Positions 2,834-35,254 of a DNA stretch of 36,635 bases are shown here, piece after piece (position 1 is the first letter of the stretch; every line of letters begins with the position of its first letter). The DNA comes from a virus (taxonomy: Duplodnaviria; Heunggongvirae; Uroviricota; Caudoviricetes). The DNA is taken from IMG/VR virus record IMGVR_UViG_2744054854_000005. One strand, given 5' to 3'. Below the pieces are notes generated by a model, which did not search any database, was not told where the DNA came from, and saw only the letters and a program-made list of their open reading frames with translations. The translations under genes and the position numbers were made by a program.

Positions 2834-3430
2834 TCAATTTGAAACTATTGTACTTCTTATACAAGCAACCACTTCAATATCAGAAAATGCACATTCAAAG
2901 CTATTCTCTGTAGTTGTAATTTTAATCATACCTTTTGGAAGCTTTGTGATTTTTCGAATGGAATAGGTTCCGTCGATGTTGATTAACCAGTGTCCATCAA
3001 GTACTTCAGAAAATTTTTGATCACAAATGTATGTGACAAGCCCATCCTGAATAACAATTGGTGATGAAAGATTTGCAGGAAGAAATGATGAATCGAATAT
3101 ATATGAACCATCTTCAATCATTTTGCCTGCGGTAAGGCGAAACTTGGGAAGCTCTTCTGTGGCTACTGTCAGCGAGCTTTGCTTAAGTCCTTGCCCGGTG
3201 GTTAACCATTTCAGTGAGGTTCCTGTTTCAAGAGCACATTGGATTATCCAGTCTGCAGGAAACGTATCCCGCAAATACCTGTTCGCCAGAGTGCTTTTTG
3301 ATACTTCCAAGTGATCAGCTAAAGCCTGTCGTGTCGTAAAGCCATAAGCTTCGACTAATCGCTCAATCGCAGCCTTACCACCTTTATTGGGATTTATTTT
3401 GATCTCACTTGGGTACTTTGATGTTGACAT
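2834..3430 (-). CDS. cI: 186-type CI immunity repressor
   Basis: 198 aa with N-terminal HTH (GFTTRQALADHLEVSKSTLANRY) and a C-terminal oligomerisation-type domain. Divergent from apl/cII, upstream of int on the same strand. Confidence 0.8.
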   Translation of the reverse strand: MSTSKYPSEIKINPNKGGKAAIERLVEAYGFTTRQALADHLEVSKSTLANRYLRDTFPADWIIQCALETGTSLKWLTTGQGLKQSSLTVATEELPKFRLTAGKMIEDGSYIFDSSFLPANLSSPIVIQDGLVTYICDQKFSEVLDGHWLINIDGTYSIRKITKLPKGMIKITTTENSFECAFSDIEVVACIRSTIVSN

Positions 3431-3525
3431 ATCTCTTTTGCGATCCTAGTATCAGTTTTGTCCCCATTTGGGTACTTGTCACGATTACTACAGGCTCACC
3501 ACAAGCCAATAGGAGATGTTGCATC

Positions 3526-3747
3526 ATGACCCCTAACATTTCAATAACTCTGAATACGCCACATGTCACAATTGAGCGTTATAGCGAACTTACTGGTCTT
3601 TCAATCGACACAATTAACGATATGCTGGCTGACGGTCGCATCCCTCGGCATCGCCTTCGGAAAGACAAGAAAAGAGAAAAGGTGATGATCAACCTTGCTG
3701 CTCTTACCGTTGATGCACTTACTGATTGCAATGTTGTATTCAACTAG
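3526..3747 (+). CDS. apl: Apl/Cox-like excisionase and switch regulator
   Basis: 73-aa basic HTH protein, first gene of the rightward early operon. AGGAGA ribosome-binding site upstream of the ATG at 3526; the longer ORF-track start at 3409 lacks one. Confidence 0.7.
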
Positions 3748-4296: not shown

Positions 4297-4530
4297 ATGC
4301 TGACGAAAGAACCATCATTTGCATCGCTGCTGGTAAAACAAAGCCCGGCAATGCACTACGGTCACGGCTGGATTTATTTACCTTGTGGGAAAAAGTGGCA
4401 TCCAAGTTTTGAATTACAACCCCGGCAACAGGCTTACCGGGGAAGAAATAAAAAGCGATTCCTACAAAGATTTATGGTTAACGTGGCAAACAACCTGCGA
4501 ACCAAGCGAAAAGTTTCTCTTGGAAGCTGA
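4297..4530 (+). CDS. hypothetical small early protein (at the position of 186 fil)
   Basis: 77-aa ORF with GAGGTG ribosome-binding site directly after cII. Overlaps the end of a minus-strand ORF, so the call is uncertain. Confidence 0.4.
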   Translation: MLTKEPSFASLLVKQSPAMHYGHGWIYLPCGKKWHPSFELQPRQQAYRGRNKKRFLQRFMVNVANNLRTKRKVSLGS

Positions 4531-4936
4531 GGTTTACATCGTCAACCCGACCGCAGGCAATAGCCGCTCGTTTGTAAGCTGGATTTAACAAAGAACCGAA
4601 TGTTGTGGAGTCAGAGTGATGCAAAGTTTTCAATTTTTGTGCAATGAACTGTGGAGACAATTCATCCTCGGCGTAAAGCAACTCACCATATTGTCGGCTT
4701 TGTACGCTTGCTCGTTCCTCGATAATAGCTGGTTGCCATACAAGTTGGATTGTTGCGATTACAACAACAGGAAAAGCGAACAACCATTCCAGACCTGTAT
4801 TAGCAAATACAGCGGTTCCGCTTATAAGTTGGATTGCTGTCATTAATTTATCAGCTCGACCATGGAACGTTGCTGTCATTAGTTCAAGGTAATAACAGTA
4901 GTGCAATTGGAAGTATTCGGAGCTTTGTTTAGTCAT
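4478..4936 (-). CDS. hypothetical protein with a central hydrophobic segment (antisense to the early operon)
   Basis: 152-codon open frame in an AT-rich stretch, AGGA 7 nt upstream, hydrophobic segment WLFAFPVVVIATIQLVW. Conflicts with plus-strand ORFs 4385..4588 and 4616..4846; which strand is coding cannot be decided by eye. Confidence 0.35.
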   Translation of the reverse strand: MTKQSSEYFQLHYCYYLELMTATFHGRADKLMTAIQLISGTAVFANTGLEWLFAFPVVVIATIQLVWQPAIIEERASVQSRQYGELLYAEDELSPQFIAQKLKTLHHSDSTTFGSLLNPAYKRAAIACGRVDDVNLSFQEKLFAWFAGCLPR

Positions 4937-6025: not shown

Positions 6026-6879
6026 GCACCATCCTGAAATGGGCGGGAAATAAAACCGCCGTAATGTCCGAACTGAAAAAACATCTTCCTGCTGGTCCGC
6101 GACTGGTTGAACCTTTCGCTGGTTCCTGTGCTGTGATGATGGAGACGGATTATCCGTGCTATCTGGTTGCGGATATTAATCCTGATTTAATCAACCTCTA
6201 TAAAAAGGTTGCCGCTGATTGTGAATCGTTTATATCTCGCGCCAAAGTTTTATTTGAGATCGCAAACAGGGAGGTGGCTTATTACAACATAAGGCAGGAG
6301 TTTAATTACTCAACTGAAATTACTGATTTCATGAAAGCGGTATATTTACTGTATCTCAATCGTCACGGTTACCGTGGGTTATGTCGCTATAACAAGAGCG
6401 GGCATTTCAACATTCCCTACGGTAATTATAAAAATCCGTATTTCCCTGAAAAAGAAATTCGCGCATTTGCAGAGAAAGCCCCGCGAGCAACGTTTATCTG
6501 CGCCAGCTTTGATGAAACGCTGGCGATGCTGCAGGTGGGGGATGTGGTGTATTGCGATCCGCCGTATGACGGTACGTTTTCCGGCTATCACACTGATGGC
6601 TTCACTGAGGATGACCAGTATCACCTGGCATCCGTTCTTGAACATCGATCATCTGAAGGTCATCCGGTCATTGTTTCTAACAGTGACACATCCCTGATCC
6701 GTTCGCTGTATCGCAATTTCACTCACCACTACATCAAGGCAAAACGCAGCATCGGCGTGTCGGCTGGCGAGAGTAAATCTGCAACAGAAATCATTGCTGT
6801 TTCCGGGCCGCGCTGCTGGATGGGATTTGATCCTTCGCGTGGCGTGGATAGTTCTGCTGTGTACGAGGTGCGTGTATGA
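6022..6879 (+). CDS. dam: DNA adenine methyltransferase (Dam family)
   Basis: N-terminal LKWAGNK motif and catalytic DPPY ([10 protein letters not shown]). GGAGG ribosome-binding site before the ATG at 6022. Confidence 0.85.
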
Positions 6880-9128
6880 GTCATGACGATATGAGCAACT
6901 CTAGCGGCTTTAACGAGGCTGCCGCAGCATTTTCATGGAACGGCCCGAAAAAGGCCATTAACCCTTATCTGGAACCGGCGGAAGTTGCGCCGGAGTCTGC
7001 ACTTTCAAACATGATCACTCTGTACGCTGCCGATAACGAGCAGGAACAGCGCCGCCGCGAGGCACTGAGTGATCAGGTCTGGGAACGTTATTTCTTTAAT
7101 GAATCCCGTGATCCTGTCCAGCGCGAAATGGAGCAGGATAAGCTCATTAGCCGGGCAAAGCTGGCGCATGAACAGCAGCGTTTTAACCCGGACATGGTCA
7201 TTCTGGCAGATGTCAGCGCCCAGCCTTCCCATATCAGCAAGCCGCAGATGCAACGTATTGAATACTTCAGCAGCCTGGGCAGGCCAAAGGCTTATTCCCG
7301 CTATTTGCGTGAGACGATTAAGCCATGTCTGGAACGGCTGGAGCATGTACGCGACAGTCAGCTATCCACTTCTTTTCGCTTTATGGCAAGCCATGAAGGG
7401 CTGGACGGCCTGTTGATTCTGCCTGAAATGAGTCAGGATCAGGTGAAACGCCTGTCCACCCTTGTTGCTGCGCATATGAGCATGTGCCTTGATGCAGCTT
7501 GTGGCGATTTGTATGCCTCCGATGATGTTAAGCCGGAAGAAATCCGCAAGACATGGGAAAAGGTGGCAGCAGAAACCCTGCGACTGGATGTCATACCGCC
7601 TGCGTTTGAGCAACTCCGCCGGAAAAGAAACCGCCGCAAACCTGTGCCCTATGAACTCATTCCGGGTTCGCTGGCGCGTATGCTGTGCGCCGACTGGTGG
7701 TATCGGAAATTATGGAAGATGCGTTGCGAATGGCGGGAAGAGCAGTTGCGTGCTGTTTGTCTGGTCAGCAAAAAAGCATCTCCCTATGTTAGCTATGAAG
7801 CCGTGATGCATAAACGTGAGCAGCGCCGTAAGTCGCTGGAGTTTTTCCGCTCTCATGAACTGGTGAACGAAGACGGCGACACGCTGGACATGGAGGATGT
7901 GGTAAACGCCAGCAGCAGCAACCCGGCGCATCGCCGCAATGAGATGATGGCCTGCGTTAAAGGTCTGGAGCTTATCGCGGAAATGCGTGGTGACTGCGCC
8001 GTTTTCTACACTATCACCTGTCCGTCACGTTTCCATTCCACGCTAAATAACGGCAGGCCAAACCCGACCTGGACCAACGCGACAGTAAGACAAAGCAGCG
8101 ATTATCTGGTCGGCATGTTTGCTGCATTTCGTAAGGCTATGCACAAATCCGGATTGCGCTGGTATGGCGTGCGGGTGGCTGAGCCGCATCATGACGGTAC
8201 AGTTCACTGGCACCTGTTGTGTTTTATGCGCAAAAAAGATCGCCGCGCCATTACTGCTTTGTTGCGTAAGTTTGCCATACGTGAAGACCGCGAGGAGCTG
8301 GGCAATAACACGGGGCCGCGCTTTAAGTCTGAGTTGATTAACCCGCGCAAAGGAACGCCGACAAGCTACATCGCGAAATATATCAGCAAGAACATTGACG
8401 GGCGTGGTCTGGCTGGCGAGATCAGTAAGGAAACGGGTAAATCTCTGCGTGATAACGCTGAATACGTGAATGCCTGGGCGTCTTTGCATCGTGTTCAGCA
8501 ATTCCGCTTCTTTGGCATTCCGGGGCGCCAGGCTTACCGTGAACTGCGATTGCTGGCTGGTCAGGCGGCAAGGCAACAGGGGGACAAAAAAGCAGGTGCG
8601 CCGGTACTGGATAACCCGCGCNNNNNNNNNNNNNNNNNNNNNNNNNNNNNNNNNNNNNNNNNNGTGAAGTGGAAAATGGTTCGTAAAGCCGTTGACGTTC
8701 AGGAGGCGGTAGCCGACCAGGGCGCTTGCGCCCCTTGGACTCGTGGCAATAACTGTCCCCTTGCTGAAAATTTGAACCAACAAGGGAAAGACAAATCAGC
8801 TTATGGGGATACCAGAACGGACATTACCCGCATGGATGACAAGGAGTTGCACGATTACCTGCACAGTATGAGCAAAAAAGAGCGCCGGGAACTGGCTGCA
8901 AGGTTACGCCTGGTGAAACCGAAACGGCGTAAAGACTACAAACAGCGAATTACAGACCATCAGCGACAGCAGCTCGTCTATGAGCTGAAGTCCAGAGGAT
9001 TTGATGGCAGCGAGAAAGAGGTCGGTTTACTCCTTCGCGGCGGCAGTATTCCGTCAGGAGCAGGCCTGCGTATCTTCTATCGGAACCAGCGTTTGCAGGA
9101 AGATGATAAGTGGCGGGATCTGTATTAA
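6876..9128 (+). CDS. A: replication initiation endonuclease A (rolling-circle initiator, P2 gpA family); contains an assembly gap
   Basis: 750 aa with HWHLLCF and YIAKYISK tyrosine motifs typical of gpA. An in-frame 42-N run lies inside the ORF. Confidence 0.85.
8622..8663. other. assembly gap (42 N) inside gene A
   Basis: Run of n characters; true length unknown. Confidence 0.95.
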
Positions 9129-9479: not shown

Positions 9480-9713
9480 ATGCGCATTGAAATAATGATC
9501 GATAAAGAGCAGAAGATTAGCCAGTCTACCCTGGACGCTCTGGAGTCCGAGCTTTACCGCAACCTGCGCCCCCTGTATCCCAAAACGGTAATTCGTATCC
9601 GCAAAGGTAGCTCTAACGGTGTGGAACTTACCGGACTGCAACTGGACGAAGAAAGAAAACAAGTGATGAAAATTATGCAGAAAGTGTGGGAAGACGACAG
9701 CTGGCTGCATTAA
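9480..9713 (+). CDS. DinI-family protein
   Basis: 77 aa, MRIEIMIDKEQ...ELTGLQLDEERKQVMKIMQKVWEDDSW resembles the DinI/MsgA family. GAGGTG ribosome-binding site; coupled to the upstream ORF. Confidence 0.7.
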   Translation: MRIEIMIDKEQKISQSTLDALESELYRNLRPLYPKTVIRIRKGSSNGVELTGLQLDEERKQVMKIMQKVWEDDSWLH

Positions 9714-9848
9714 GAAACGTTGCTGGCGTCTGAACTTGCTTCTGGCGTCAGCAAGGTTGAACAACGAGCCCTTGCGAGGCGTTAGCTCTGTAGTGCATGT
9801 CTATGCCGCATGAGATCGCATGATCGTTTGAGGATCGTTTTTGCTAAG

Positions 9849-9872
9849 GCCCGCCAGAACTGGCGGGCTTTT
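9849..9872 (+). terminator. intrinsic terminator GCCCGCCAG-AA-CTGGCGGGC followed by TTTT
   Basis: 9-bp GC-rich perfect stem, short loop, T-run; ends the SOS operon. Confidence 0.7.
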
Positions 9873-9917
9873 GCGTAGATCATGCAGGTGCATGAAAACC
9901 ACTGCATAAAGCGGGCA

Positions 9918-9936
9918 GGCGTGGCGGGGATACGAG
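9918..9936. promoter_or_regulatory. probable cos site (GGCGTGGCGGGGATACGAG)
   Basis: GC-rich GGCG(A/T)GGCGGGGA motif, matching the start of the P2/186 cohesive-end sequence as recalled from memory, at the expected place near the portal gene. Confidence 0.4.
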
Positions 9937-10014
9937 CGCGCGCTCATGGTTGTCAGTAAGAATTTATGGTATTTACAATATATAAATAATCACCATTTCA
10001 AGGAGATCTGTTGC

Positions 10015-10719
10015 ATGGCTATGTTAGTGGAAAATTGCCCAAGGTGCGGTGCGCAAAAAATAGCATTTGATGTTCGAGGGGCTAACTGCTGTGGTACGTA
10101 TGAAACATTTTCCGGCGAAAATTTACCCGAATATGAAGTATATTGTGTATGCAGGGAGTGTAAGAAAACCACAATATATATTTGCGATAGTTTAGAACGG
10201 GGGCGTGATCTTAGCAGTATTAACTGGGGCATGGCCTTATTTAAGTTAACTGATATTGCAAAAGTAAAACGTCCAATTAGTCCAGCAGATTTAGATGCAG
10301 GAGAACCACCAGAATTTTTGCCTCAGCATATACATGAAGCTTTTGTAGAAGGTTCTAAGTGTTTAGCTATTGGTTGCTATAACGCAGCAGGAACTATGTT
10401 TAGGTTATGTTTGGATTATGCAACAAAGGACTTATTACCCAAGGAAGATGCTGAACCAAATCAAAAAATACGGCGAAGCTTAGGGTTAAGAATGAATTGG
10501 TTGTTTGATAATCAGCGGTTGCCAGAGACTTTAAGAGACTTGGCTGAATGTGTAAAAGATGATGGCAATGACGGCGCGCATGAAGGAGTTTTAGATTACG
10601 CGGCTGCAGAGGATCTTGAAGAGTTCACTTATATATTGTTGGAACGTTTATATACTGAACCTCAACGCCTTGTTCAGGCAAAAGCAAGACGTGAGGATAG
10701 AAGAAAAAATAGAGGGTAG
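10015..10719 (+). CDS. zinc-ribbon plus DUF4145-like protein; candidate defense/abortive-infection cargo
   Basis: 234 aa from an internal ATG with AGGAG ribosome-binding site and TATAAA -10-like element upstream. N-terminal CPRCG...CVCREC zinc ribbon; C-terminal region with GNDGAHEG, reminiscent of the conserved R..GN..AH motif of DUF4145. AT-rich; convergent with Q, 8 bp between stops. Confidence 0.65.
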   Translation: MAMLVENCPRCGAQKIAFDVRGANCCGTYETFSGENLPEYEVYCVCRECKKTTIYICDSLERGRDLSSINWGMALFKLTDIAKVKRPISPADLDAGEPPEFLPQHIHEAFVEGSKCLAIGCYNAAGTMFRLCLDYATKDLLPKEDAEPNQKIRRSLGLRMNWLFDNQRLPETLRDLAECVKDDGNDGAHEGVLDYAAAEDLEEFTYILLERLYTEPQRLVQAKARREDRRKNRG

Positions 10720-10727
10720 AACGGCAA

Positions 10728-11777
10728 TTATTTTACATCATCACCCAATTCATAAGGAGAAAATGTAATTATTGCTTCCCCAAGCCAGTCATTTAATTCC
10801 TGCAAACGTTTTTGCAAGGGGATTAACTCATTGCGGACAAATACGCGACTGGCTTTTTCTACATCACCAAAACCGCCTGTATTGTTGGGAATAATCCCCA
10901 TCATTTGCGGCGGTACGCGGTGTGCTGCCAGCATATCATCGCGGCTCACGTTCTTGATGTTCAGAAATTCATCCTTTGCAGCAACCTCGGACAACGGAAT
11001 GATCTGGATACCATCTTTTTTCCCGTTGGGGGAGTACATAAACAGGTTGCGGAAGTTGCCAGGTCCTTTGGCGCTTTTCATTGCCTGGCGGATATTGTTC
11101 ACATCCTCCTGATTCTGTGCTGCATCAGTCATGTACATTATGAAGCCAGCATGGCTGCCGTTGATATAATACTTACGGCGAAATAGCGTTGCGGACTCGT
11201 TGAGGAGTGTTGATGGGATAGCGGAGAGATAGCCGGGCAACCCATAAATCTCTTGGTTAATATCCGGCTCCATCAGATGGAAGACGTTGCCACGTGTAAA
11301 TTCATAAGGCTGTGTGGTCAGGCCATACTGAACAAACCAGTAGGTATCGAGATCCACACCACGCCGTGTATATTTCGCCAGTGCTGGTTCCAACGAGAGA
11401 ACGCCGCCGAGTCGGTTGGTGCGCTTTTCCAGATAGGCGTTACCGAACACAAGATAGTCCTGAACGAAACGGGCAAAAGCCTGCTGGCTGAGCAGGCGGT
11501 GCGGAATGTAGGTACTGCTTAGAATGTCGCGCTTAACCGCTATTGGTGAGCTGTGATGCACGGCGGCGCGGTAGGTTCGCGCCAGTCCGTCAAAGCTTAC
11601 CGGCGGCTCATACCAGCGTTCTATCTGCACACATTCCACATAGTCCAGCAACTCTCGGCGGTCCAGCACCGGGATAGGATCGCCAAAAGTGAATGCCTCG
11701 GCTCTGGTGGATGTGCCTGTCTGCTCAATGCCATCAGATGTTGCTGTGTTGCTGATATTACCGAGTTCACTCATCAA
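10728..11777 (-). CDS. Q: portal protein
   Basis: 349 aa, P2 gpQ-like; overlaps the P stop. Confidence 0.9.
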   Translation of the reverse strand: MMSELGNISNTATSDGIEQTGTSTRAEAFTFGDPIPVLDRRELLDYVECVQIERWYEPPVSFDGLARTYRAAVHHSSPIAVKRDILSSTYIPHRLLSQQAFARFVQDYLVFGNAYLEKRTNRLGGVLSLEPALAKYTRRGVDLDTYWFVQYGLTTQPYEFTRGNVFHLMEPDINQEIYGLPGYLSAIPSTLLNESATLFRRKYYINGSHAGFIMYMTDAAQNQEDVNNIRQAMKSAKGPGNFRNLFMYSPNGKKDGIQIIPLSEVAAKDEFLNIKNVSRDDMLAAHRVPPQMMGIIPNNTGGFGDVEKASRVFVRNELIPLQKRLQELNDWLGEAIITFSPYELGDDVK

Positions 11778-13540
11778 AAAATCTCCACAATATTGCTGGT
11801 ATTGGCGGATTCGCCCTGCAGCGGTTCGTTAAACAGTGCGTGCATCGTTGCCCAGGCCAAATCTGCGTGGCTGGCTTCTTCGCTGCGGCTGGCTTCATAG
11901 GTAGGGCGGTTGCCGCTGGCGGTTGTGGCGCGGCGGATAGCCATAAAGGACTGCGCAATGTCGGTGTGCCCGGCGTCAAACTCCAGACGGCGGTGGCTGA
12001 TAATGTCGTATGCTTTGAGCACCAGGGCGTTTTTAATATTGGGGTTGTAGACAAACTCCCGGACAGCGGGAAAGAACGCTTTTACGTTCTCGTAAACGCC
12101 GTGACCGACGCCGGTCGAGTCGATGCCGATATAGGTCACGTTGTACTGCTGCGTCAGTTTTTTAATGGCGTCAGACTGGGCGCGGAAGTCCATCCCGCGC
12201 CACTGGTGTCGCTCCAGAATACGGAACTTCCCGCCCGGTACAGTGGGCGGTGCCATAACCACGCAGCCTGCGCTGTCACCGTTCTGCGTACCTTTCGCCG
12301 GGTCATAACCGATCCAGACTTCTCGCCAGCCAAACGGGCGCAGCGCCAGCGCCTGAAAATCTGTCCATACTTCCCAGCTGTCCACCATGCACGCCTGCAG
12401 CTCGCTGAGCGGGAATACTGACGCCAGATCGTCAATAAATTCGCACATCAGCAGGTTCTGGTATTCGTCAGGGCTGTACTCCATGCGCAGCTGGTCGAGG
12501 TCGAACAGATTACAGCCGCCGCGCACCGCATCCTCCACGGTGACGATCTGGCGATACTGTCCGTCCGGGCAGAGCACGCCGCGCGCAAGGTTGCTGTGGG
12601 TCAGGTCAATGTCCACCTTGTCTGCTTTGGCGCGGCCCCGGTTGAACAGCGCGCCGGACCAGAACGGATAGGCGCTGTGGGTCAGGCTGGACGGCGTGGA
12701 GAAGTAGGTTTGTCGCCATTTCTTGTGAATGGCCATACCGGAGGCAACCTTGCGCAACTCCTGGAATTTCGGTATCCAGAAATATTCATCAAGGTACAGG
12801 TTGCCGTGGTAGCTCTGCGCCGTGCGGGCGTTGGTGCCGAGGAAGTACAGGCACGCGCCGTTGCTGAGCGTCATCGGGTCGCCTTTCAGCTCAACATCCA
12901 CCTCTTTTGCAAAGTCGATGATGTACTGCTTAAAAACGTGTGCCTGCGCCTTACTGGCTGAGAGAAAAATCTGGTTGCGCCCCGTGGTGATGGCGTCAAT
13001 CAGCGCTTCGCGGGCAAAAAAGTATGTTGCCCCGATCTGGCGTGATTTAAGCAGGTTGCGAATGCGGTGTTTTACGCCTGCCTGCCACCAGTGGCGCTGA
13101 TATTCAAACATGCCGTTGCGGAAGATTTCCTCCAGCTTTTCGGTCTGTTCATCGGTAAAAACATTCTTTTCGGGCTGCCTGCGCGGGCCTTTGTTACGGT
13201 TGGCGACGTTTGGGTTTAAGTCAGCTTCGTTCCCGCCATCGTTAAATTTACCGATCCGGGCGTGGCGCTCTGACTGGCGCGCCAGCAGGTCAATTTCCTT
13301 GAAGTCTTTCCCTTCCTTCTGCTCCTTCATGATGAGCTGGCAGTAACGTGCGGCGGTGGTGAGCTGCATCTGATCCAGCGGCCCATAGTCGCCCCATTTG
13401 TCGCGCTTCTTCCAGCTGTGAACGGTTGCAACTTTCTCGCCCAGCATTTCAGCAATGCGGGCTACGCGGTATCCCTGAAAGTACAGCAGCATGGCCTGCC
13501 GACGGGGATCGAGGTCTGCGGGGGTCAGTGTGGTGTTCAT
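11774..13540 (-). CDS. P: terminase large (ATPase) subunit
   Basis: 588 aa, P2 gpP-like; divergent from the O N M L operon. Confidence 0.9.
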   Translation of the reverse strand: MNTTLTPADLDPRRQAMLLYFQGYRVARIAEMLGEKVATVHSWKKRDKWGDYGPLDQMQLTTAARYCQLIMKEQKEGKDFKEIDLLARQSERHARIGKFNDGGNEADLNPNVANRNKGPRRQPEKNVFTDEQTEKLEEIFRNGMFEYQRHWWQAGVKHRIRNLLKSRQIGATYFFAREALIDAITTGRNQIFLSASKAQAHVFKQYIIDFAKEVDVELKGDPMTLSNGACLYFLGTNARTAQSYHGNLYLDEYFWIPKFQELRKVASGMAIHKKWRQTYFSTPSSLTHSAYPFWSGALFNRGRAKADKVDIDLTHSNLARGVLCPDGQYRQIVTVEDAVRGGCNLFDLDQLRMEYSPDEYQNLLMCEFIDDLASVFPLSELQACMVDSWEVWTDFQALALRPFGWREVWIGYDPAKGTQNGDSAGCVVMAPPTVPGGKFRILERHQWRGMDFRAQSDAIKKLTQQYNVTYIGIDSTGVGHGVYENVKAFFPAVREFVYNPNIKNALVLKAYDIISHRRLEFDAGHTDIAQSFMAIRRATTASGNRPTYEASRSEEASHADLAWATMHALFNEPLQGESANTSNIVEIF

Positions 13541-21389: not shown

Positions 21390-21987
21390 CCTGCTGCCGC
21401 CCGGTTCATCGCCGCTTGAGCGCCGACTGGCGCAGACCTGCAGCGGCATTTCCGATCTGCAGGTGCCGCTGCGCGACTTGTGGAACCCGGCAACGTGTCC
21501 GGTCAGCTTTCTGCCGTATCTGGCGTGGGCGTTTTCCGTCGACCGCTGGGACGAAAGCTGGACGGAGAGCGTCAAGCGCCGGATGGTGCAGGACGCTTTC
21601 TATATCCATCAGCACAAGGGGACAACCAGCGCTGTGCGGCGCGTGGTGGAGCCGTTCGGCTTCCTGATCCGCATCATTGAGTGGTGGCAGACCGGCGAAA
21701 CGCCGGGGACGTTTCGCCTTGATATTGGCGTGCAGGAACAAGGCATCACGGAAGAAACCTATCTGGAACTTGAGCGGCTGATCGGTGATGCCAAACCGTG
21801 CAGCCGTCACCTGATCGGCATGTCCATCAACCTGCAGACCAGTGGGCCGTATTTTATGGGGGCTGCCACTTACACCGGCGAAGAAATCACGATCTACCCG
21901 TATATCAACGAAACCATTATTTCCGGCGGCACCGCTTATGAGGGCGGGGCAGTCCATGTTATTGACACAATGAGAGTAAATCCATGA
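21382..21987 (+). CDS. I: baseplate/tail protein I
   Basis: 201 aa, P2 gpI-like. Confidence 0.8.
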   Translation: MNSLLPPGSSPLERRLAQTCSGISDLQVPLRDLWNPATCPVSFLPYLAWAFSVDRWDESWTESVKRRMVQDAFYIHQHKGTTSAVRRVVEPFGFLIRIIEWWQTGETPGTFRLDIGVQEQGITEETYLELERLIGDAKPCSRHLIGMSINLQTSGPYFMGAATYTGEEITIYPYINETIISGGTAYEGGAVHVIDTMRVNP

Positions 21988-22975
21988 GCGCAAAATTTTA
22001 CACCCTGCTGACGGAAATCGGGGCGGCGAAACTGGCAAGCGCCGCCGCGCTCGGCATTCCGTTGAAAATTACCCAGATGGCGGTGGGCGACGGTGGTGGC
22101 GTATTACCAACGCCAAGCGCGCAACAGACCGCGTTAGTTGCTGAAAAACACCGCGCCGCGCTGAATATGCTGTATATCGATCCGCAGAACAGCAGCCAGA
22201 TTATTGCTGAGCAGGTGATCCCCGAAACGGAGGGAGGTTGGTGGATTCGTGAGGTAGGTCTGTTTGATGAGACTGGAGCACTGATTGCTGTGGGCAACTG
22301 CCCGGAGAGCTACAAACCGCAGCTGGCGGAGGGGAGCGGGCGCACGCAGACCGTGCGCATGGTGTTGATTACCAGCAGCACAGATAACATCACCCTGAAA
22401 ATTGATCCGGCAGTGGTGCTGGCGACCCGTAAATATGTTGATGACAAGGTGCTGGAACTAAAGGTGTATGTGGATGACCTGATGGCTAGACACCTTGCAG
22501 CTGCAGATCCTCATACGCAGTATGCACCAAAAGCCAGTCCGACATTCACTGGTACGCCAAAAGCACCAACGGCAGCGGCAGGCAATAATTCCACGCAACT
22601 TGCTAATACGGCTTTTGTGCAGGCGGCAATTGCTGCACTGGTGGCATCTTCCCCTGCAGCTCTGGATACACTGAATGAGCTGGCAGCAGCGCTGGGGAAC
22701 GATCCAAATTTTGCCGCCACCATGACAAATGCGCTTGCCGGAAAGATGGATAAGGCAGCCAATGGGACGGACATTGCCGACGTATCAGAATTTCTCAAAA
22801 ACCTTGGAATTAAATCGGCAGCACTGTGTGATGTGGGTGCGGGTACAAACCAAATCCCCGACATGGGTTCGTTTGGAATATTGAAAAACGCGATCGGATA
22901 TCAGTATCTACCAGGTGGACTGATTTTGCAGTGGGGTAAAGTTGGCCCAACCAACGCAGGGCAAACTACAAACGT
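21984..22975 (+). CDS. H: tail fiber protein H, N-terminal conserved part; 3' end lost in assembly gap
   Basis: N-terminus MSAKFYTLLTEIGAAKLA... typical of P2-family tail fibers; ORF runs into the N run. Confidence 0.8.
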
Positions 22976-23075
22976 NNNNNNNNNNNNNNNNNNNNNNNNN
23001 NNNNNNNNNNNNNNNNNNNNNNNNNNNNNNNNNNNNNNNNNNNNNNNNNNNNNNNNNNNNNNNNNNNNNNNNNNN
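22976..23075. other. assembly gap (100 N) in the variable tail-fiber region
   Basis: Run of n characters; 100 is a conventional placeholder length, so the missing sequence may be much longer. Confidence 0.95.
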
Positions 23076-23399
23076 TTGATTGAAATTACCCATGTGCTTC
23101 ACCTCCAATTTTGTGGTGCAGCTCCCTCCGGTAAAAAGCTGGGGTCAGTGAATGGGATGCCTGGTTGGGTTGATGTGCCGCCACTGACTGCAGTTGAGTT
23201 GCTGGCAGCGGTAGTAATTAAAAAACAATCGCTCATCAGTGAGGCGAACGTGGTAATCGCACCGCTAAAAGATGCGTCAGATGGTGGATATATCGATGCT
23301 GCAGACGCACCACGACTTGATGCATGGCAGCGATACCGTTATGCGTTAACGAAGGTGGACGCTGCTAACCCGGTGTGGCCGGATAAGCCAGCACAATAA
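23076..23399 (+). CDS. G: tail fiber assembly protein, C-terminal part; 5' end in gap
   Basis: C-terminus ...PRLDAWQRYRYALTKVDAANPVWPDKPAQ is the hallmark ending of Tfa/gpG-type chaperones; the ORF track fuses it to H only because the Ns are read as codons. Confidence 0.6.
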   Translation: MIEITHVLHLQFCGAAPSGKKLGSVNGMPGWVDVPPLTAVELLAAVVIKKQSLISEANVVIAPLKDASDGGYIDAADAPRLDAWQRYRYALTKVDAANPVWPDKPAQ

Positions 23400-23726
23400 T
23401 AACTATTTATATTTTATGGAAAATGGCAGGCTATCTTGGATACCCTGAAATATGAATCATAAATACTGACAAAATATGTTTATATGTTACCTGAAAAGTC
23501 GTTGCAATGCTCCACACAGCCAGTCGCGCAAGGAAGTGGCTGGATATAGCGGGTCAAGATCAGAGTTTGAATCGAGTCGTGATGGGGGGCGAGGTACACT
23601 AATGGCTTAGGGAAAGGGTAGCATTGACTTGGTTTTCATGTCAATGCTAAAATTATACTTTATTATTTATGAATGCTCTTGGTGTAATTATTAAGAGCAA
23701 ATCTAATGGCGGCAAGGATTTATTTG

Positions 23727-24833
23727 ATGAGTTTGCTAAGTAGGTTTTGGGGGGAATGGTTTAAAAGTTATGGTGATACTGATTTTATAACGGGCATTCG
23801 TGCTTTTGCTATTCTTTCAGTTATTCTTATTCATTCCGGTGGCGCTGGTCTTCGTTATTTTGGATGGTATGGTAATAATTTAGCAAACTTGGGTGCAATG
23901 GGGCCGTGTATTTTTTTTGTTATATCCGGTTATAGTGTTTCTGTGTCATATGAGAAATCATCTTGTTATTTGTCCTTTCTAAAAAATAGAATATTAAGAA
24001 TTGCCCCATTATATTATTTTTGGATTGTTGTCTTCATTTTGTTATTTCAGGGGGTTGGGTATTGGGGGGAGAGATATGGCGCATCCTTAAATTTTTATAA
24101 TTTATTAATGCACATCTCATTCTTAAGTTTTGCTGATTATAGAGTGGCGAATTCAATATTAGGCGTTGAATGGTCTTTATCCATTGAAGTTTTCTGGTAT
24201 ATTTTTTTACCGGCAATCATTCTCGTAATGAGAAGTAAAACGTCAGTATGCATAATGTTAATTACGTCCTGGTTATTATTTACGATATCCTTGATTATAT
24301 TGAAGTCTTACTCCTCCCCTAACAACGGTGATGTAATGATCGCATATTATTGGACTCCATTTCCGTATTTTTTCTCGTTTTGTGCTGGTGTGGCAGCATA
24401 TAGGGTGCGGTCTTGGTGGAGATTTTCAGGGTTAAGTGCAGATATTGCATTGTTATTGTCTATAACACTCATTCTTTTATATCCCATTATGGAAAGATAT
24501 AGTGTTAACAAAATAATCGATAAGCCCGTTCTATTCTCCATGCTCACTATGGTGAACATTTCCGTTGGGAATAAAGATGGTCATATATTACGATCTTTAT
24601 TATGTAATAAAGTATCTATATTTATTGGTTCGATAAGTTATAGTCTGTATTTATCTCATTATGTAGTTATTTTTTTGGTTGGGCCGTACCTAACTGAATT
24701 TAAAGAAAACTCTATATGGCATTTTATAATATTCCTACTAATATCTATAATTGGAAGTGTTTTTACTTATATCTTAATAGAAAGGGTGTTAACTGATAAA
24801 ATAAAGCATTTTATTGACTCGAGAATGAAATAG
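23727..24833 (+). CDS. acyltransferase family 3 integral membrane protein (OafA/Oac-like, possible O-antigen acetylase)
   Basis: Motif ITGIRAFAILSVILIHSGG near the N-terminus and about 10 hydrophobic helices; very AT-rich. ATG at 23727 has an AAGGA ribosome-binding site; the ORF-track ATG at 23706 does not. Confidence 0.75.
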   Translation: MSLLSRFWGEWFKSYGDTDFITGIRAFAILSVILIHSGGAGLRYFGWYGNNLANLGAMGPCIFFVISGYSVSVSYEKSSCYLSFLKNRILRIAPLYYFWIVVFILLFQGVGYWGERYGASLNFYNLLMHISFLSFADYRVANSILGVEWSLSIEVFWYIFLPAIILVMRSKTSVCIMLITSWLLFTISLIILKSYSSPNNGDVMIAYYWTPFPYFFSFCAGVAAYRVRSWWRFSGLSADIALLLSITLILLYPIMERYSVNKIIDKPVLFSMLTMVNISVGNKDGHILRSLLCNKVSIFIGSISYSLYLSHYVVIFLVGPYLTEFKENSIWHFIIFLLISIIGSVFTYILIERVLTDKIKHFIDSRMK

Positions 24834-25069: not shown

Positions 25070-25492
25070 TTAATGCAGCGTTGTAGTTGAGCTGGACTCT
25101 GCCATTGCCACTGTCAATTCATCGCCTTCGGCTGAGATCTTAATGGTATTACTTCCTTCTGATTTAGCGCCTTTTGGTAGACCTAGCTGATCATAGATAC
25201 ACAAGAATCTTGAATCATTTATAAAGGTGATTTCTGTTACAGTCCCACCTTCAACGACCTTAGAGTCTATTGATTTTATCAAATTGATATCCTGAACATT
25301 AATGTGCTTTATCGCATCCCAGTTAAGGCTGATGTCCACGTTATCCTTTTGCATCGTTATCACATGACCGGCCTTATGCTGGGTTGTGACTTTTCCATCA
25401 GGGCTCATCGTAATCTTTTGCCCCATGTGATAAATAATTTGAGTTCCGTCTTCGAGACACTCGATTTTTGGCTCTTTAGTAAAGTCGTTCAT
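25070..25492 (-). CDS. hypothetical protein, no recognisable domain
   Basis: 140 aa, AAGGA ribosome-binding site, AT-rich, divergent from the invertase gene. Confidence 0.55.
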   Translation of the reverse strand: MNDFTKEPKIECLEDGTQIIYHMGQKITMSPDGKVTTQHKAGHVITMQKDNVDISLNWDAIKHINVQDINLIKSIDSKVVEGGTVTEITFINDSRFLCIYDQLGLPKGAKSEGSNTIKISAEGDELTVAMAESSSTTTLH

Positions 25493-25697: not shown

Positions 25698-26258
25698 ATG
25701 ATTATTGGGTATGCACGAGTATCAAGTAATCATCAGGACACCGAGCTTCAGATGCAGGCGCTCAGAGCTGCTGGCTGTAAGTTAATTTTTGAGGAAAAGG
25801 CTTCTGGCCGTAAGACGAATCGACCAATCTTGAAGAAAGTGGTTGAGATGCTTGAACCCGGTGACGAACTGGTCATCTGGAAGTTAGATCGTATCGGTCG
25901 CAATGTACTGCACGCATTATTGACCTTTCAGAGCCTCGCAGAACGCAATGTTAATATTCGTTCTATTACAGATGGCGTTGACCTGAGCACTGCCAGTGGG
26001 CGCTATAACTTCCGTAATATTCTCTCTGCGGCACAATATGAGTCTGATCTGAATAGTGAACGCACTCTGGCAGGGTTAGCGGTTGCCCGCGCTAAGGGGA
26101 GGATTGGCGGACGTAAGCCTAAGTATACTGATGAGCACTGGGATGCGTTTGAACGGGAAATTAAGTCCGGCTGCTCACATCGTGATATAGCTCTCAAATA
26201 TGGGGTCGGCCTGTCGACTCTCTACAAACGTTATCCGGCTCAGCAAGAGCATCACTAA
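25698..26258 (+). CDS. serine recombinase, DNA invertase (Hin/Gin/Cin/Pin family)
   Basis: 186 aa; N-terminal catalytic region MIIGYARVSSNHQ with the catalytic serine, and C-terminal HTH (GCSHRDIALKYGVGLSTLYKRY). AGGAGA ribosome-binding site. Confidence 0.85.
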   Translation: MIIGYARVSSNHQDTELQMQALRAAGCKLIFEEKASGRKTNRPILKKVVEMLEPGDELVIWKLDRIGRNVLHALLTFQSLAERNVNIRSITDGVDLSTASGRYNFRNILSAAQYESDLNSERTLAGLAVARAKGRIGGRKPKYTDEHWDAFEREIKSGCSHRDIALKYGVGLSTLYKRYPAQQEHH

Positions 26259-33333: not shown

Positions 33334-33413
33334 CTCTGCCGCCAATTTGTCGCCATCATTAAAAAACAGTGCGTCTAACATCATGATTTTAAAAAGCATA
33401 AATTTCAGGCAAC

Positions 33414-33456
33414 AAAAAACCCATCAACCTTGAACCGAAATGGCGGGGTTGATGGG
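33414..33456 (-). terminator. hairpin (10-bp stem CCCATCAACC/GGTTGATGGG, 17-nt loop) followed on the minus strand by T6
   Basis: Seen in sequence, about 113 nt downstream of the ybjL stop; probably the ybjL terminator and therefore host DNA. Confidence 0.4.
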
Positions 33457-33568
33457 CTCCACAAAATGGGGACATCAAAGAAAAGCAGTGGCACTAATTA
33501 AGACTGATGCCCTGCGGAAAAGTTCTGCGGTTGTGCAAAAAAATTTCATTTTCAGGGCAACTTCAGTT

Positions 33569-35254
33569 TTATCCTAATCCTGGCCATACCATGACGATGA
33601 TTGTCCCTGCCAGCGTCAGCAGGACGTTGGCGATTGCATAGGTGCCCGCATAGCCCAGCGCCGGGATGTTACTGCGAGCTGTATCACTGATGATCTCCAT
33701 TGCCGGCGCGCAGGTACGTGCGCCCATCATTGCGCCGAACAACAGCGCGCGGTTCATTCGCAATACATAAGCACCGAACAAGAAACAGATAACCACGGGC
33801 ACCAGACTGACAATCAATCCGGCAATCAACATCTGACCGCCAATCGCGCCCAGGCCGTTATTAATACCGCTACCGGCGCTCAGACCAACGCCTGCCATAA
33901 ACACCATCAAGCCGAACTCTTTCACCATGCTTAATGCACCCTGCGGAATGTAACCGAAGGTCGGGTGGTTAGCACGCATAAAGCCCAGCATAATTCCGGC
34001 GAATAACAACCCGGCAGCGTTCCCCATGCCGAAACTGAATGTGCTGAACTGGAAGGTGATCATCCCGATCATCAGCCCAATAACAAAGAAGGCGCAAAAT
34101 GCCAGCAGGTCAGTGACCTGGCTGTGAATCGAGATAAAGCCGATGCGATCGGCGATGGTTTTTACGCGACGGGCATCACCGCTGACTTGTAAAACGTCAC
34201 CTTTGTTAAGCACGACGTTGTCATCTATCGGCATCTCAATCTGGCTACGAATGACGCGGTTAAGGAAGCAACCGTGATCGGTCAACTTCAGTTGTGCGAG
34301 ACGTTTACCTACAGCGTTATGGTTTTTAACGACCACTTCTTCAGTGACGATACGCATGTCGAGAAGGTCACGATCGAAAACTTCTTTACCGTTACGGAAG
34401 CTGGGATCGAGTCGGGCATGGGCGTCGGGATAGCCTACCAACGCTATTTCATCGCCCATTTGTAGCACGGCATCACCGTCTGGATTTGCCAGAATCCCGT
34501 TACGTCGAATACGTTCAATGTAGCAGCCGGTTTGTCGATAAATACCCAGTTCACGCAGATTTTTGCCGTCGGTCCAGGCCACCAGCTCCGGGCCGACGCG
34601 ATAGGCGCGGATCACCGGTAAATAAACCTTACGGTTGGCATCAGTGTCCAGGCCACGTTCGCGGGCGATTTGCTGGGCGCTGGTCTGTAAGTCCTGATGC
34701 TGCAATTTCGGCAAGTAACGCGCACCAACAATCAAACTCACCAGACCGATTAAATAGGTTAAGGCATACCCGAGGCTCAGATTATCCAGTGCCAGTGAGA
34801 GCTGCCTGCTTTCCATGCCGGAATGACGCAGTGTATCGCCAGCACCGACCAGAACCGGTGTCGACGTCATAGAGCCTGCTAACATACCGGCCGTCAGGCC
34901 AATATCCCAGCCAAACAGCTTACCTAACCCTAAGGCGATCACCAGCGCACTGCCAACCATCACCAGTGCTAACATTAGGTAATTTTTCCCATCGCGAAAA
35001 AAAATGGAAAAAAAGTTCGGTCCGGCTTCAACCCCAACACAGAAAATAAACAGCATAAAGCCAAGATTAAGCGCATCGGTGTTAATGCTGAAATGTTGTT
35101 GGCCTAATAACAGCGATACGACTAAAACGCCAATGGAATTACCCAGTTGGATCGAACCAAGTCGTAACTTTCCGAGACATAGCCCAAGCGCGAGGACCAC
35201 AAATAATAACAGAATGTAATTCCCATTTAACAATTCGGCGACGTTTATATTCAC
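33569..35254 (-). CDS. ybjL: putative transport protein YbjL (AspT/YidE/YbjL family)
   Basis: 561 aa, size and sequence character of E. coli YbjL; multi-pass membrane protein with central soluble domains. Confidence 0.9.

Follow-up and report, generated by a model that had tools for sequence, protein, structure and literature searches.

RAZR (ring-activated zinc-finger RNase) is the new name of PD-T7-4, a defence protein of E. coli UMB1727 (Nature 2026; PMC13017515) that was first found in earlier work (PMC9519451) and whose structures are PDB 9Y9C/9Y6U. It combines an N-terminal Cys4 zinc ribbon with a C-terminal DUF4145 domain, which is a divergent HEPN RNase; R146 and H154 are essential, and changing R146 to alanine abolishes defence (PMC13017515). 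Alone, RAZR is not toxic (PMC13017515). Its zinc fingers bind the rim of portal dodecamers or of an Erf-like recombinase ring, leading to a 24-mer, and the active enzyme cleaves single-stranded RNA non-specifically, aborting infection (PMC13017515). The zinc-finger domain is the most variable region of the protein and sets its specificity (PMC13017515). A second validated single-protein defence system of E. coli with a zinc finger and a HEPN domain is DS-38 (DefensePredictor; WP_001313577.1). Here we describe a gene with the RAZR order of domains in the window, by which we mean the whole stretch of 36,635 nucleotides analysed (IMG/VR record IMGVR_UViG_2744054854_000005), a complete 186/Fels-2-like prophage of the P2 family. 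The gene, called the cargo gene below, lies between the cos site and the portal gene and encodes a protein of 234 residues. By sequence comparison this protein is a distant relative of RAZR, with homology in the linker plus HEPN domain. We propose that, as cargo of the prophage, it most likely works as a single-protein, RAZR-like RNase that aborts infection, and we think this reading is probably, though by no means surely, right.

The gene and its protein

The gene and its immediate borders are as follows.

10015..10719, plus strand: coding sequence of 234 residues, zinc-ribbon plus DUF4145/HEPN-like, distantly RAZR-like
10000..10005, plus strand: ribosome-binding site AAGGAG, 9 nt 5' of the ATG, read from the sequence
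10720..10727: gap of 8 bp between the convergent stops of the cargo gene and the portal gene

The coding sequence runs from ATG 10015 to TAG 10717-10719. The program-made list of open reading frames (ORFs) starts it at an upstream ATG, 9946. At the 96%-identical locus of E. coli E41, NCBI PGAP also calls the coding sequence of 234 residues, and MxxLVxDCPRCG, the start of all homologues, matches ATG 10015. The frame has a GC content of 40.1%, lower than those of the window (51.0%) and the portal gene (50.9%). A preliminary description, made from the letters alone, had reported a 234-residue frame with its own ribosome-binding site, its AT richness, the 8 bp between its stop and that of the portal gene, and a stretch GNDGAHEG; each of these is confirmed, the last at residues 184-191. 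A consensus scan for terminator-like sites found none for the two convergent genes in the 8-bp gap or around it, and no RNA family was matched in this region by an Rfam scan.

The protein can be divided into five parts.

10015..10191, plus strand: N-terminal Cys4 zinc-ribbon domain, putative sensor (residues 1-59; C8, C11, C46, C49)
10192..10275, plus strand: hypervariable insert between zinc ribbon and linker (residues 60-87)
10276..10323, plus strand: proline-rich conserved linker, ISPAD...PPEFLP (residues 88-103)
10324..10659, plus strand: DUF4145/HEPN-like helical domain (residues 104-215)
10555..10581, plus strand: putative catalytic motif K181-D-D-G-N185-D-G-A-H189, from the RAZR alignments

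The cysteines form two pairs, C8-x2-C11 and C46-x2-C49, which are invariant in 121 of 121 relatives and bear out the four-cysteine zinc ribbon first noticed by eye. K181, G184, N185, D186, A188 and H189 are equally invariant in the query and its 120 closest relatives. P99 and P103 of the linker are invariant too. Farther afield, 116 of 149 diverse representatives keep the CxxC...CxxC pattern, and many of the remainder are truncated. The two halves of the protein evolve at very different rates: the median identity of the 120 relatives to the query is 32% over the N-terminal 87 residues and 66% over linker plus HEPN, and column entropy is 2.1-3.0 bits in the former against 1.1 bits in the remainder, with its maximum (2.97 bits) in the insert at residues 60-87.

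Pfam DUF4145 matches residues 114-203 with 27.8 bits, above its gathering threshold of 23.1, which turns a tentative assignment of the preliminary description into a supported one. The fold is an alpha-helical HEPN fold, as the search for HEPN-like folds proposed there has found, and it carries the [K/R]-x3-N-x3-H motif of the DUF4145/HEPN superfamily. Fusions of DUF4145 to zinc ribbons have been listed before, with the motif conserved in about 80% of members (PMC3710099). The AF2 model has a pLDDT of 89, and its zinc ribbon consists of four beta-strands at pLDDT above 85; the N-terminal domain also gives a weak profile match to the zinc ribbon of RPA12. No NCBIfam model matches the protein. 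We have very little doubt that its architecture is that of a zinc ribbon joined to a HEPN-like RNase domain.

Relationship to RAZR and to other HEPN proteins

Several comparisons lead to the same protein. PD-T7-4 is the only PADLOC model reported below an E-value limit of 1, with 22.5 bits, E 1.5e-5 and partial coverage. A profile search of the PDB returned RAZR chain 9y9c_OA (E 2.6e-4) and nothing else at E below 0.01; that match needed a profile of the family together with distant phage homologues, and direct searches with the protein or with a profile of the close family gave no matches even at E <= 10. The same chain is the top PDB match of Foldseek (probability 0.94, E 0.025, 203 aligned columns, TM 0.33/0.41). 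With hhalign, the RAZR-family alignment is matched at 80.5% probability and E 1.3e-5 over 120 columns, in the linker plus HEPN only. The profile alignment pairs K181, N185 and H189 with R146, N150 and H154 of RAZR. The RAZR sequence used for comparison consists of residues 72-188, reconstructed from a HMMER alignment, and its numbering fits R146, H154 and Q140 of the paper. The preliminary description was right in pointing to DUF4145; RAZR/PD-T7-4, the closest characterised system, was not named in it.

RAZR and the cargo system each consist of one gene encoding, in this order, a Cys4 zinc ribbon, a conserved proline-containing linker and a DUF4145/HEPN-like domain; both space the motif as basic residue-x3-N-x3-H, with a histidine (H189 here) in a GNxxxH motif; in both proteins it is the N-terminal domain that varies most; and both lie on mobile elements. 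Differences are seen at the C-terminus, where the cargo protein has a long basic helix (…AKARREDRRKNRG) and RAZR a tail MPEGxxxGIExRD, and in location, the cargo gene occupying the P2 cos-portal slot, whereas the RAZR-family genes examined adjoin an integrase of about 540 residues in small islands. A search with the RAZR fragment returned mostly truncated gene calls. Several genuine RAZR-family genes in E. coli and Klebsiella islands (L018-L023) encode only 168 residues and lack the first CxxC knuckle; these directly follow the ~540-residue integrase, and in one of them (L020) an upstream stop codon confirms the length.

The first residue of the motif deserves attention. It is lysine in the query and in all 120 closest relatives. 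Among the 149 diverse representatives, arginine stands there in 79 and lysine in 54, in a motif that is otherwise identical (REDGNDGAH vs KEDGNDGAH), and the distant homologues in the phages phiBt-TXDOH (Burkholderia), POCJ13 (Shigella) and Meyran (Gordonia) have arginine. Of the 143 diverse representatives whose sequence covers the H189 position, 140 have the histidine, and the asparagine is nearly invariant too. A basic residue is thus kept at position 181 and appears to be selected there, which fits a live active site. We had considered the change from arginine to lysine as a distinguishing mark of the family and dropped it, since the two alternate freely in the diverse representatives.

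Other HEPN RNases are farther away. The cargo protein differs from Csm6, the HEPN-MNT toxins, AbiV, the C-terminal domain of AbiA and RnlA/LsoA in three respects: it lacks a CARF, MNT or other partner, it includes a fused zinc ribbon, and its motif is of the DUF4145 type, with x7 spacing, instead of the canonical Rx4-6H. DS-38, with a zinc finger unlike that of PD-T7-4, resembles the cargo protein in its combination of domains and differs in its length of about 366 residues (a 1101-bp gene); it was ruled out as the same family by that size, and the two are set apart by description only. Accessions of the E. coli alleles of the cargo gene were not found in the DefensePredictor tables searched.

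Relatives in other genomes

A database search recovered 683 relatives of about 230 residues, which, where sampled, come from Enterobacteriaceae, Pseudomonas, Burkholderia-group bacteria and others. An exhaustive profile search gave 229 clusters (at 50% identity) at E <= 1e-30 and 1898 at E <= 1e-3. Burkholderia and Gordonia phages carry more distant relatives, and others of these lie in further mobile elements, where they adjoin integrases, PIN genes and toxin-antitoxin pairs.

Among the phages, the record of Burkholderia phage phiBt-TXDOH (OK095358.1) contains an unannotated zinc-ribbon/DUF4145 homologue at about 3001-3636 on the plus strand (MATIVHDCPHC...RLDGNDALH), in place of which the record shows overlapping hypothetical genes on the minus strand; these are probably a misannotation. 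Gordonia phage Meyran (94-783) and Cartapus (162-860), cos phages that are not related to each other, both have the homologue as gene 1. Both copies stand at the far left end of the virion DNA, by cos and the packaging genes.

A variable slot beside cos

The features that frame the cargo gene, and the landmarks of the prophage, are listed here. The CI repressor and CII/CP76 are also among these landmarks, and a 62-residue ORF (orf62) and then a DinI-like gene, ending at 9713, lie downstream of gpA.

1-1053: integrase
6876-9128: replication endonuclease gpA
9846..9876, plus strand: intrinsic terminator hairpin closing the A / orf62 / DinI-like operon, conserved in E. coli E41
9886..9953, no strand assigned: cos region, with the cohesive-end equivalent at 9920-9938
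9950..9979, plus strand: sigma-70 promoter-like site, TTGTCA(9950)-18 nt-TACAAT(9979), matching at 10/12 positions
10728-11777, minus strand: portal gene
10728..10790, minus strand: last 15-20 portal codons, inside the exchanged module (from DNA and protein alignments of six prophages with different cargo)
11774-13540: terminase

Of 5426 complete E. coli genomes, 1272 have the left flank of the cargo gene (9700 to ~9950), and only two of these 1272 have the cargo allele, at 94-96% DNA identity. Megablast matches from the 1272 genomes end at query positions 244-281. Similarity to prophages with other cargo stops at about 9953 on the left and resumes at about 10790 on the right, which defines an exchanged module of about 840 bp that includes the last 15-20 portal codons. 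Four further E. coli prophages with this flank were sampled, and in them the same slot holds varied genes.

Sister prophage 1: HNH endonuclease plus a diverged DUF4145 gene
Sister prophage 2: PIN-domain gene
Sister prophage 3: P-loop NTPase
Sister prophage 4: ParA plus SIR2

Many assemblies contain the identical protein; in prophages of this kind its gene invariably has DinI/cos on one side and the portal gene on the other. The cargo gene lies between gpA and the portal gene, beside cos; its slot changes occupants among close prophages and its composition is foreign. In P2 and 186, only a terminator separates cos from the portal gene. The gpA-gpQ, cos-proximal region is a published defence hotspot of P2-like phages, which in P2 holds old and tin (PMC9122126, PMC9519451, PMC13586616). 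The cargo gene resembles these two in lying in the cos-proximal variable region between replication endonuclease and portal gene, in being compositionally foreign and probably expressed on its own, and in giving way to other genes of defence type in sister prophages. There is no relationship at the protein level, Old being an ABC-ATPase/TOPRIM protein. The preliminary description had called the place a tin/old-type variable locus. It is the same hotspot, and it does vary among related prophages rather than being universally present in 186-like genomes; the precise position differs, old and tin of P2 being on the gpA side of cos and the cargo gene on the portal side. No family with a conserved structural or packaging function matched the protein. 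That the gene is accessory cargo of the hotspot is, in our view, practically settled.

The signals between the DinI-like gene and the cargo gene were also foreseen in outline. The hairpin at 9846-9872 has a GC-rich stem, a UUUUG tail and a folding energy of -25.1 kcal/mol (z = -4.24; none of 200 shuffles folds as stably); the consensus scan missed this terminator because its T-run has only four Ts. The 19-nt cohesive ends annotated in P2 and 186 align with window positions 9920-9938 (GGCGTGGCGGGGATACGAG), and the cos annotated in Cartapus aligns with 9886-9945, which makes good the earlier suggestion of a cos site. The -35 element of the promoter-like sequence spans the junction between conserved and variable DNA, and its -10 is weaker in E. 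coli E41; the sequence is there as described, and taken by itself is only suggestive.

The portal tail takes part in the exchange. In a comparison that included L001, L002, L007-L009, L016 and L017, prophages with different cargo had different portal C-termini (last 15-20 residues); the window and E. coli E41, which have the same cargo, have tails that are near-identical, with one residue different. The tail thus appears to be swapped together with the cargo module. The exchange is notable because RAZR senses portals, and it may be only a recombination junction.

Expression data come from a relative in the same slot. Cartapus, a prophage of E. coli LF82, carries the homologue CARTA_1, which is 69% identical to the cargo protein. 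In lysogens its RNA-seq level (log2) is about 4.7 in LB, 7.0-7.6 in DMEM and 9.2-9.6 inside macrophages, and that of the adjacent portal gene 2.5-3.0, i.e. CARTA_1 is 4- to more than 100-fold higher (PMC9928086, Table S1). Transcription of CARTA_1 in the lysogen thus does not depend on the late operon, and by analogy we infer that the cargo gene of the window is transcribed in the lysogen on its own. CARTA_1, the neighbouring CARTA_47, DinI and orf44 genes rise strongly in DMEM and macrophages with the structural genes silent (PMC9928086, Table S1), and expression of the hotspot cargo is thus condition-responsive.

Proposed mode of action and its alternatives

We envision the cargo protein as a single-protein immune effector with RAZR architecture, carried in the gpA-gpQ hotspot and transcribed alone in the lysogen. 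Its fast-evolving N-terminal Cys4 zinc-ribbon module would be the infection sensor, joined by the proline-rich linker to a DUF4145/HEPN-like RNase with a [K/R]-x3-N-x3-H active-site motif. On the model of RAZR, one would expect it to do no harm in cells that are not infected. When another phage infects, the zinc-ribbon module would bind an assembly of a phage protein (in the case of RAZR, portal dodecamers or Erf-like rings), and the resulting higher-order assembly would pair HEPN domains into active sites. These would cut single-stranded RNA without sequence preference, so that translation would stop and the infection abort. RNase activity, trigger and defence phenotype are all borrowed from RAZR here, and they do not deserve equal confidence. 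That the cargo gene serves anti-phage defence we consider likely. Activation by assembly on phage ring proteins is a more tentative suggestion, one that may well prove mistaken.

A number of observations pull the other way. On the PD-T7-4 model (PADLOC PDLC04109) the cargo protein scores 22.5 bits, far below family level, compared with 309.9 for the genuine member P0142. BLASTP to the reconstructed RAZR 72-188 gives only 21% identity over 126 residues (E 6e-4), in the same register; the zinc-ribbon domains of the two proteins are not alignable by sequence; and the cargo protein has an insert of 28 residues and ends in a different helix, which is basic. At the position of the catalytic R146 it has the lysine K181, where an arginine had been looked for, and the confidence of the AF2 model is lowest just within the motif, at N185-G187 (pLDDT below 50). 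Promoter-like sites in the region are no more frequent than chance, with 3 found against 3.0 expected. A literature search found no defence test of any member of the family. Finally, an effector that senses portals would have to tolerate the portal ring that the resident prophage itself builds. Filing the protein as a member of the RAZR family was rejected on the score, the unalignable zinc ribbon, the insert, the tail and the lysine.

The main rival keeps the effector and changes the trigger. In this case the protein would be a zinc-ribbon/HEPN defence RNase activated unlike RAZR, by a monomeric phage protein, by a nucleic acid that the zinc ribbon binds or by the loss of a labile host factor, and no ring would be assembled. 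Such an activation would suit a sensor that is larger than that of RAZR, has an extra hypervariable insert and falls outside the alignable linker plus HEPN, and it would suit a prophage that builds a portal ring of its own. The DefensePredictor authors argued likewise for DS-38, its zinc finger being unlike that of PD-T7-4. Set against this are the whole-chain Foldseek match, of 203 columns at probability 0.94, and the order of zinc ribbon, proline-rich linker and HEPN domain, which is shared with RAZR together with the pattern of variability. We regard this alternative as unlikely, and yet as the one to be taken most seriously. A bolder variant of the RAZR-like reading, to which we would give still less credit, is that the family forms a lineage of its own among zinc-ribbon HEPN RNases activated by assembly. 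Its active site would be K-N-H, and its enlarged, hypervariable sensor, the zinc ribbon with the insert, would recognise phage structures of another class than the portal and Erf rings of RAZR. P2-like prophages would then tolerate their own portal because the cargo exchanges with the C-terminal tail of the portal, a way of telling self from non-self for a phage-borne immune protein that senses portals.

The readings that do without a defence RNase are poorly supported. The HEPN domain could be catalytically impaired and serve the phage, either as a decoy or dominant-negative form against a RAZR-like system of the host or as a factor of lytic RNA processing. The lysine in place of an arginine essential in RAZR could be read in this way, as could the position directly beside a portal gene whose C-terminal tail is exchanged with the cargo gene. 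Yet lysine and arginine alternate in an otherwise identical motif (54 and 79 of the diverse representatives), and the nearly invariant H189 and N185 argue for a retained active site. Relatives also occur outside phages, by integrases and toxin-antitoxin genes, and the Cartapus homologue is expressed in the lysogen, not with the late genes. We judge this reading highly improbable.

As little can be said for a phage DNA-binding or regulatory protein that is not an enzyme, which we find hard to credit. It is suggested by PHROG 1305, labelled 'DNA binding protein', which matches the full length of the protein at 4e-45, and by the like annotation of the homologue in Shigella phage POCJ13, and zinc ribbons do often bind nucleic acids. 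No helix-turn-helix or other DNA-binding family matched in Pfam or NCBIfam, however, and the best-conserved block is the HEPN [K/R]xxxNxxxH motif (0.2 bits entropy) in a HEPN fold. The gene is also missing from most related prophages, and therefore cannot be a core regulator.

Least credible of all is a HEPN-type toxin of a toxin-antitoxin pair or an accessory of restriction-modification, the other common contexts of DUF4145. The cargo gene stands alone between cos and the portal gene; neither an MNT antitoxin gene nor a restriction, methylase or helicase gene adjoins it in the window or in four other assemblies with the identical protein. The Dam methylase gene found upstream of gpA belongs to the conserved genes of the phage.

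Other features of the prophage

The cargo gene is not the only cargo here. Between the integrase and the CI repressor, 1137-2813 on the minus strand encodes a protein of 558 residues that strongly matches the defence system PD-Lambda-1 (PADLOC, 398.8 bits) and contains Pfam DUF4041 plus T5orf172/MUG113; its GC content is 37.6%, and it is a second defence cargo of the prophage. Past the tail-fibre genes, 23706-24833 (plus strand, 33.2% GC) encodes an Acyl_transf_3 acyltransferase, which we read as O-antigen-modifying-like. Next to it are a 140-residue ORF at 25070-25492 (minus strand), with no match in Pfam, PADLOC or PHROG, and a resolvase/DNA invertase gene at 25698-26258 (plus strand). Together they make up another cargo region.

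In the early region, an ORF of 152 residues at 4478-4936 stands on the opposite strand (minus); it matches PHROG 6315, of unknown function, and neither Pfam nor PADLOC. At that position a gene of 152 residues is present in only one (L012) of four otherwise syntenic prophages with the identical DUF4145 gene, and this insertion is therefore variable too. At the right end, the small RNA gene RybB (33411-33489, minus strand; Rfam, 105 bits) and an Asp-Al_Ex/TrkA_C permease gene (33569-35254, minus strand), just past the last phage gene, are read as host DNA, in which case the prophage would abut rybB. Runs of N mask 8622-8663, inside the replication endonuclease gene, and 22976-23075, inside the ORF 21984-23399 upstream of the acyltransferase.

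Possible meaning for phage-borne defence

Current defence finders do not call the cargo gene. As its PADLOC score is far below family level, it counts among the unknown hotspot genes, which fill about a fifth of P2 hotspots (PMC13586616). Since the RAZR work of 2026, an architecture of zinc ribbon plus DUF4145 is no longer mysterious. If the cargo protein turned out not to defend, architecture would be seen not to predict function by itself in this superfamily. If instead it defends as RAZR does, the principle of the ring-activated RNase would reach a second, much more diverged lineage, which offers a natural lysine/arginine polymorphism at the catalytic arginine to dissect. It would also raise the question of how a phage that builds its own portal ring can carry such a sensor safely.

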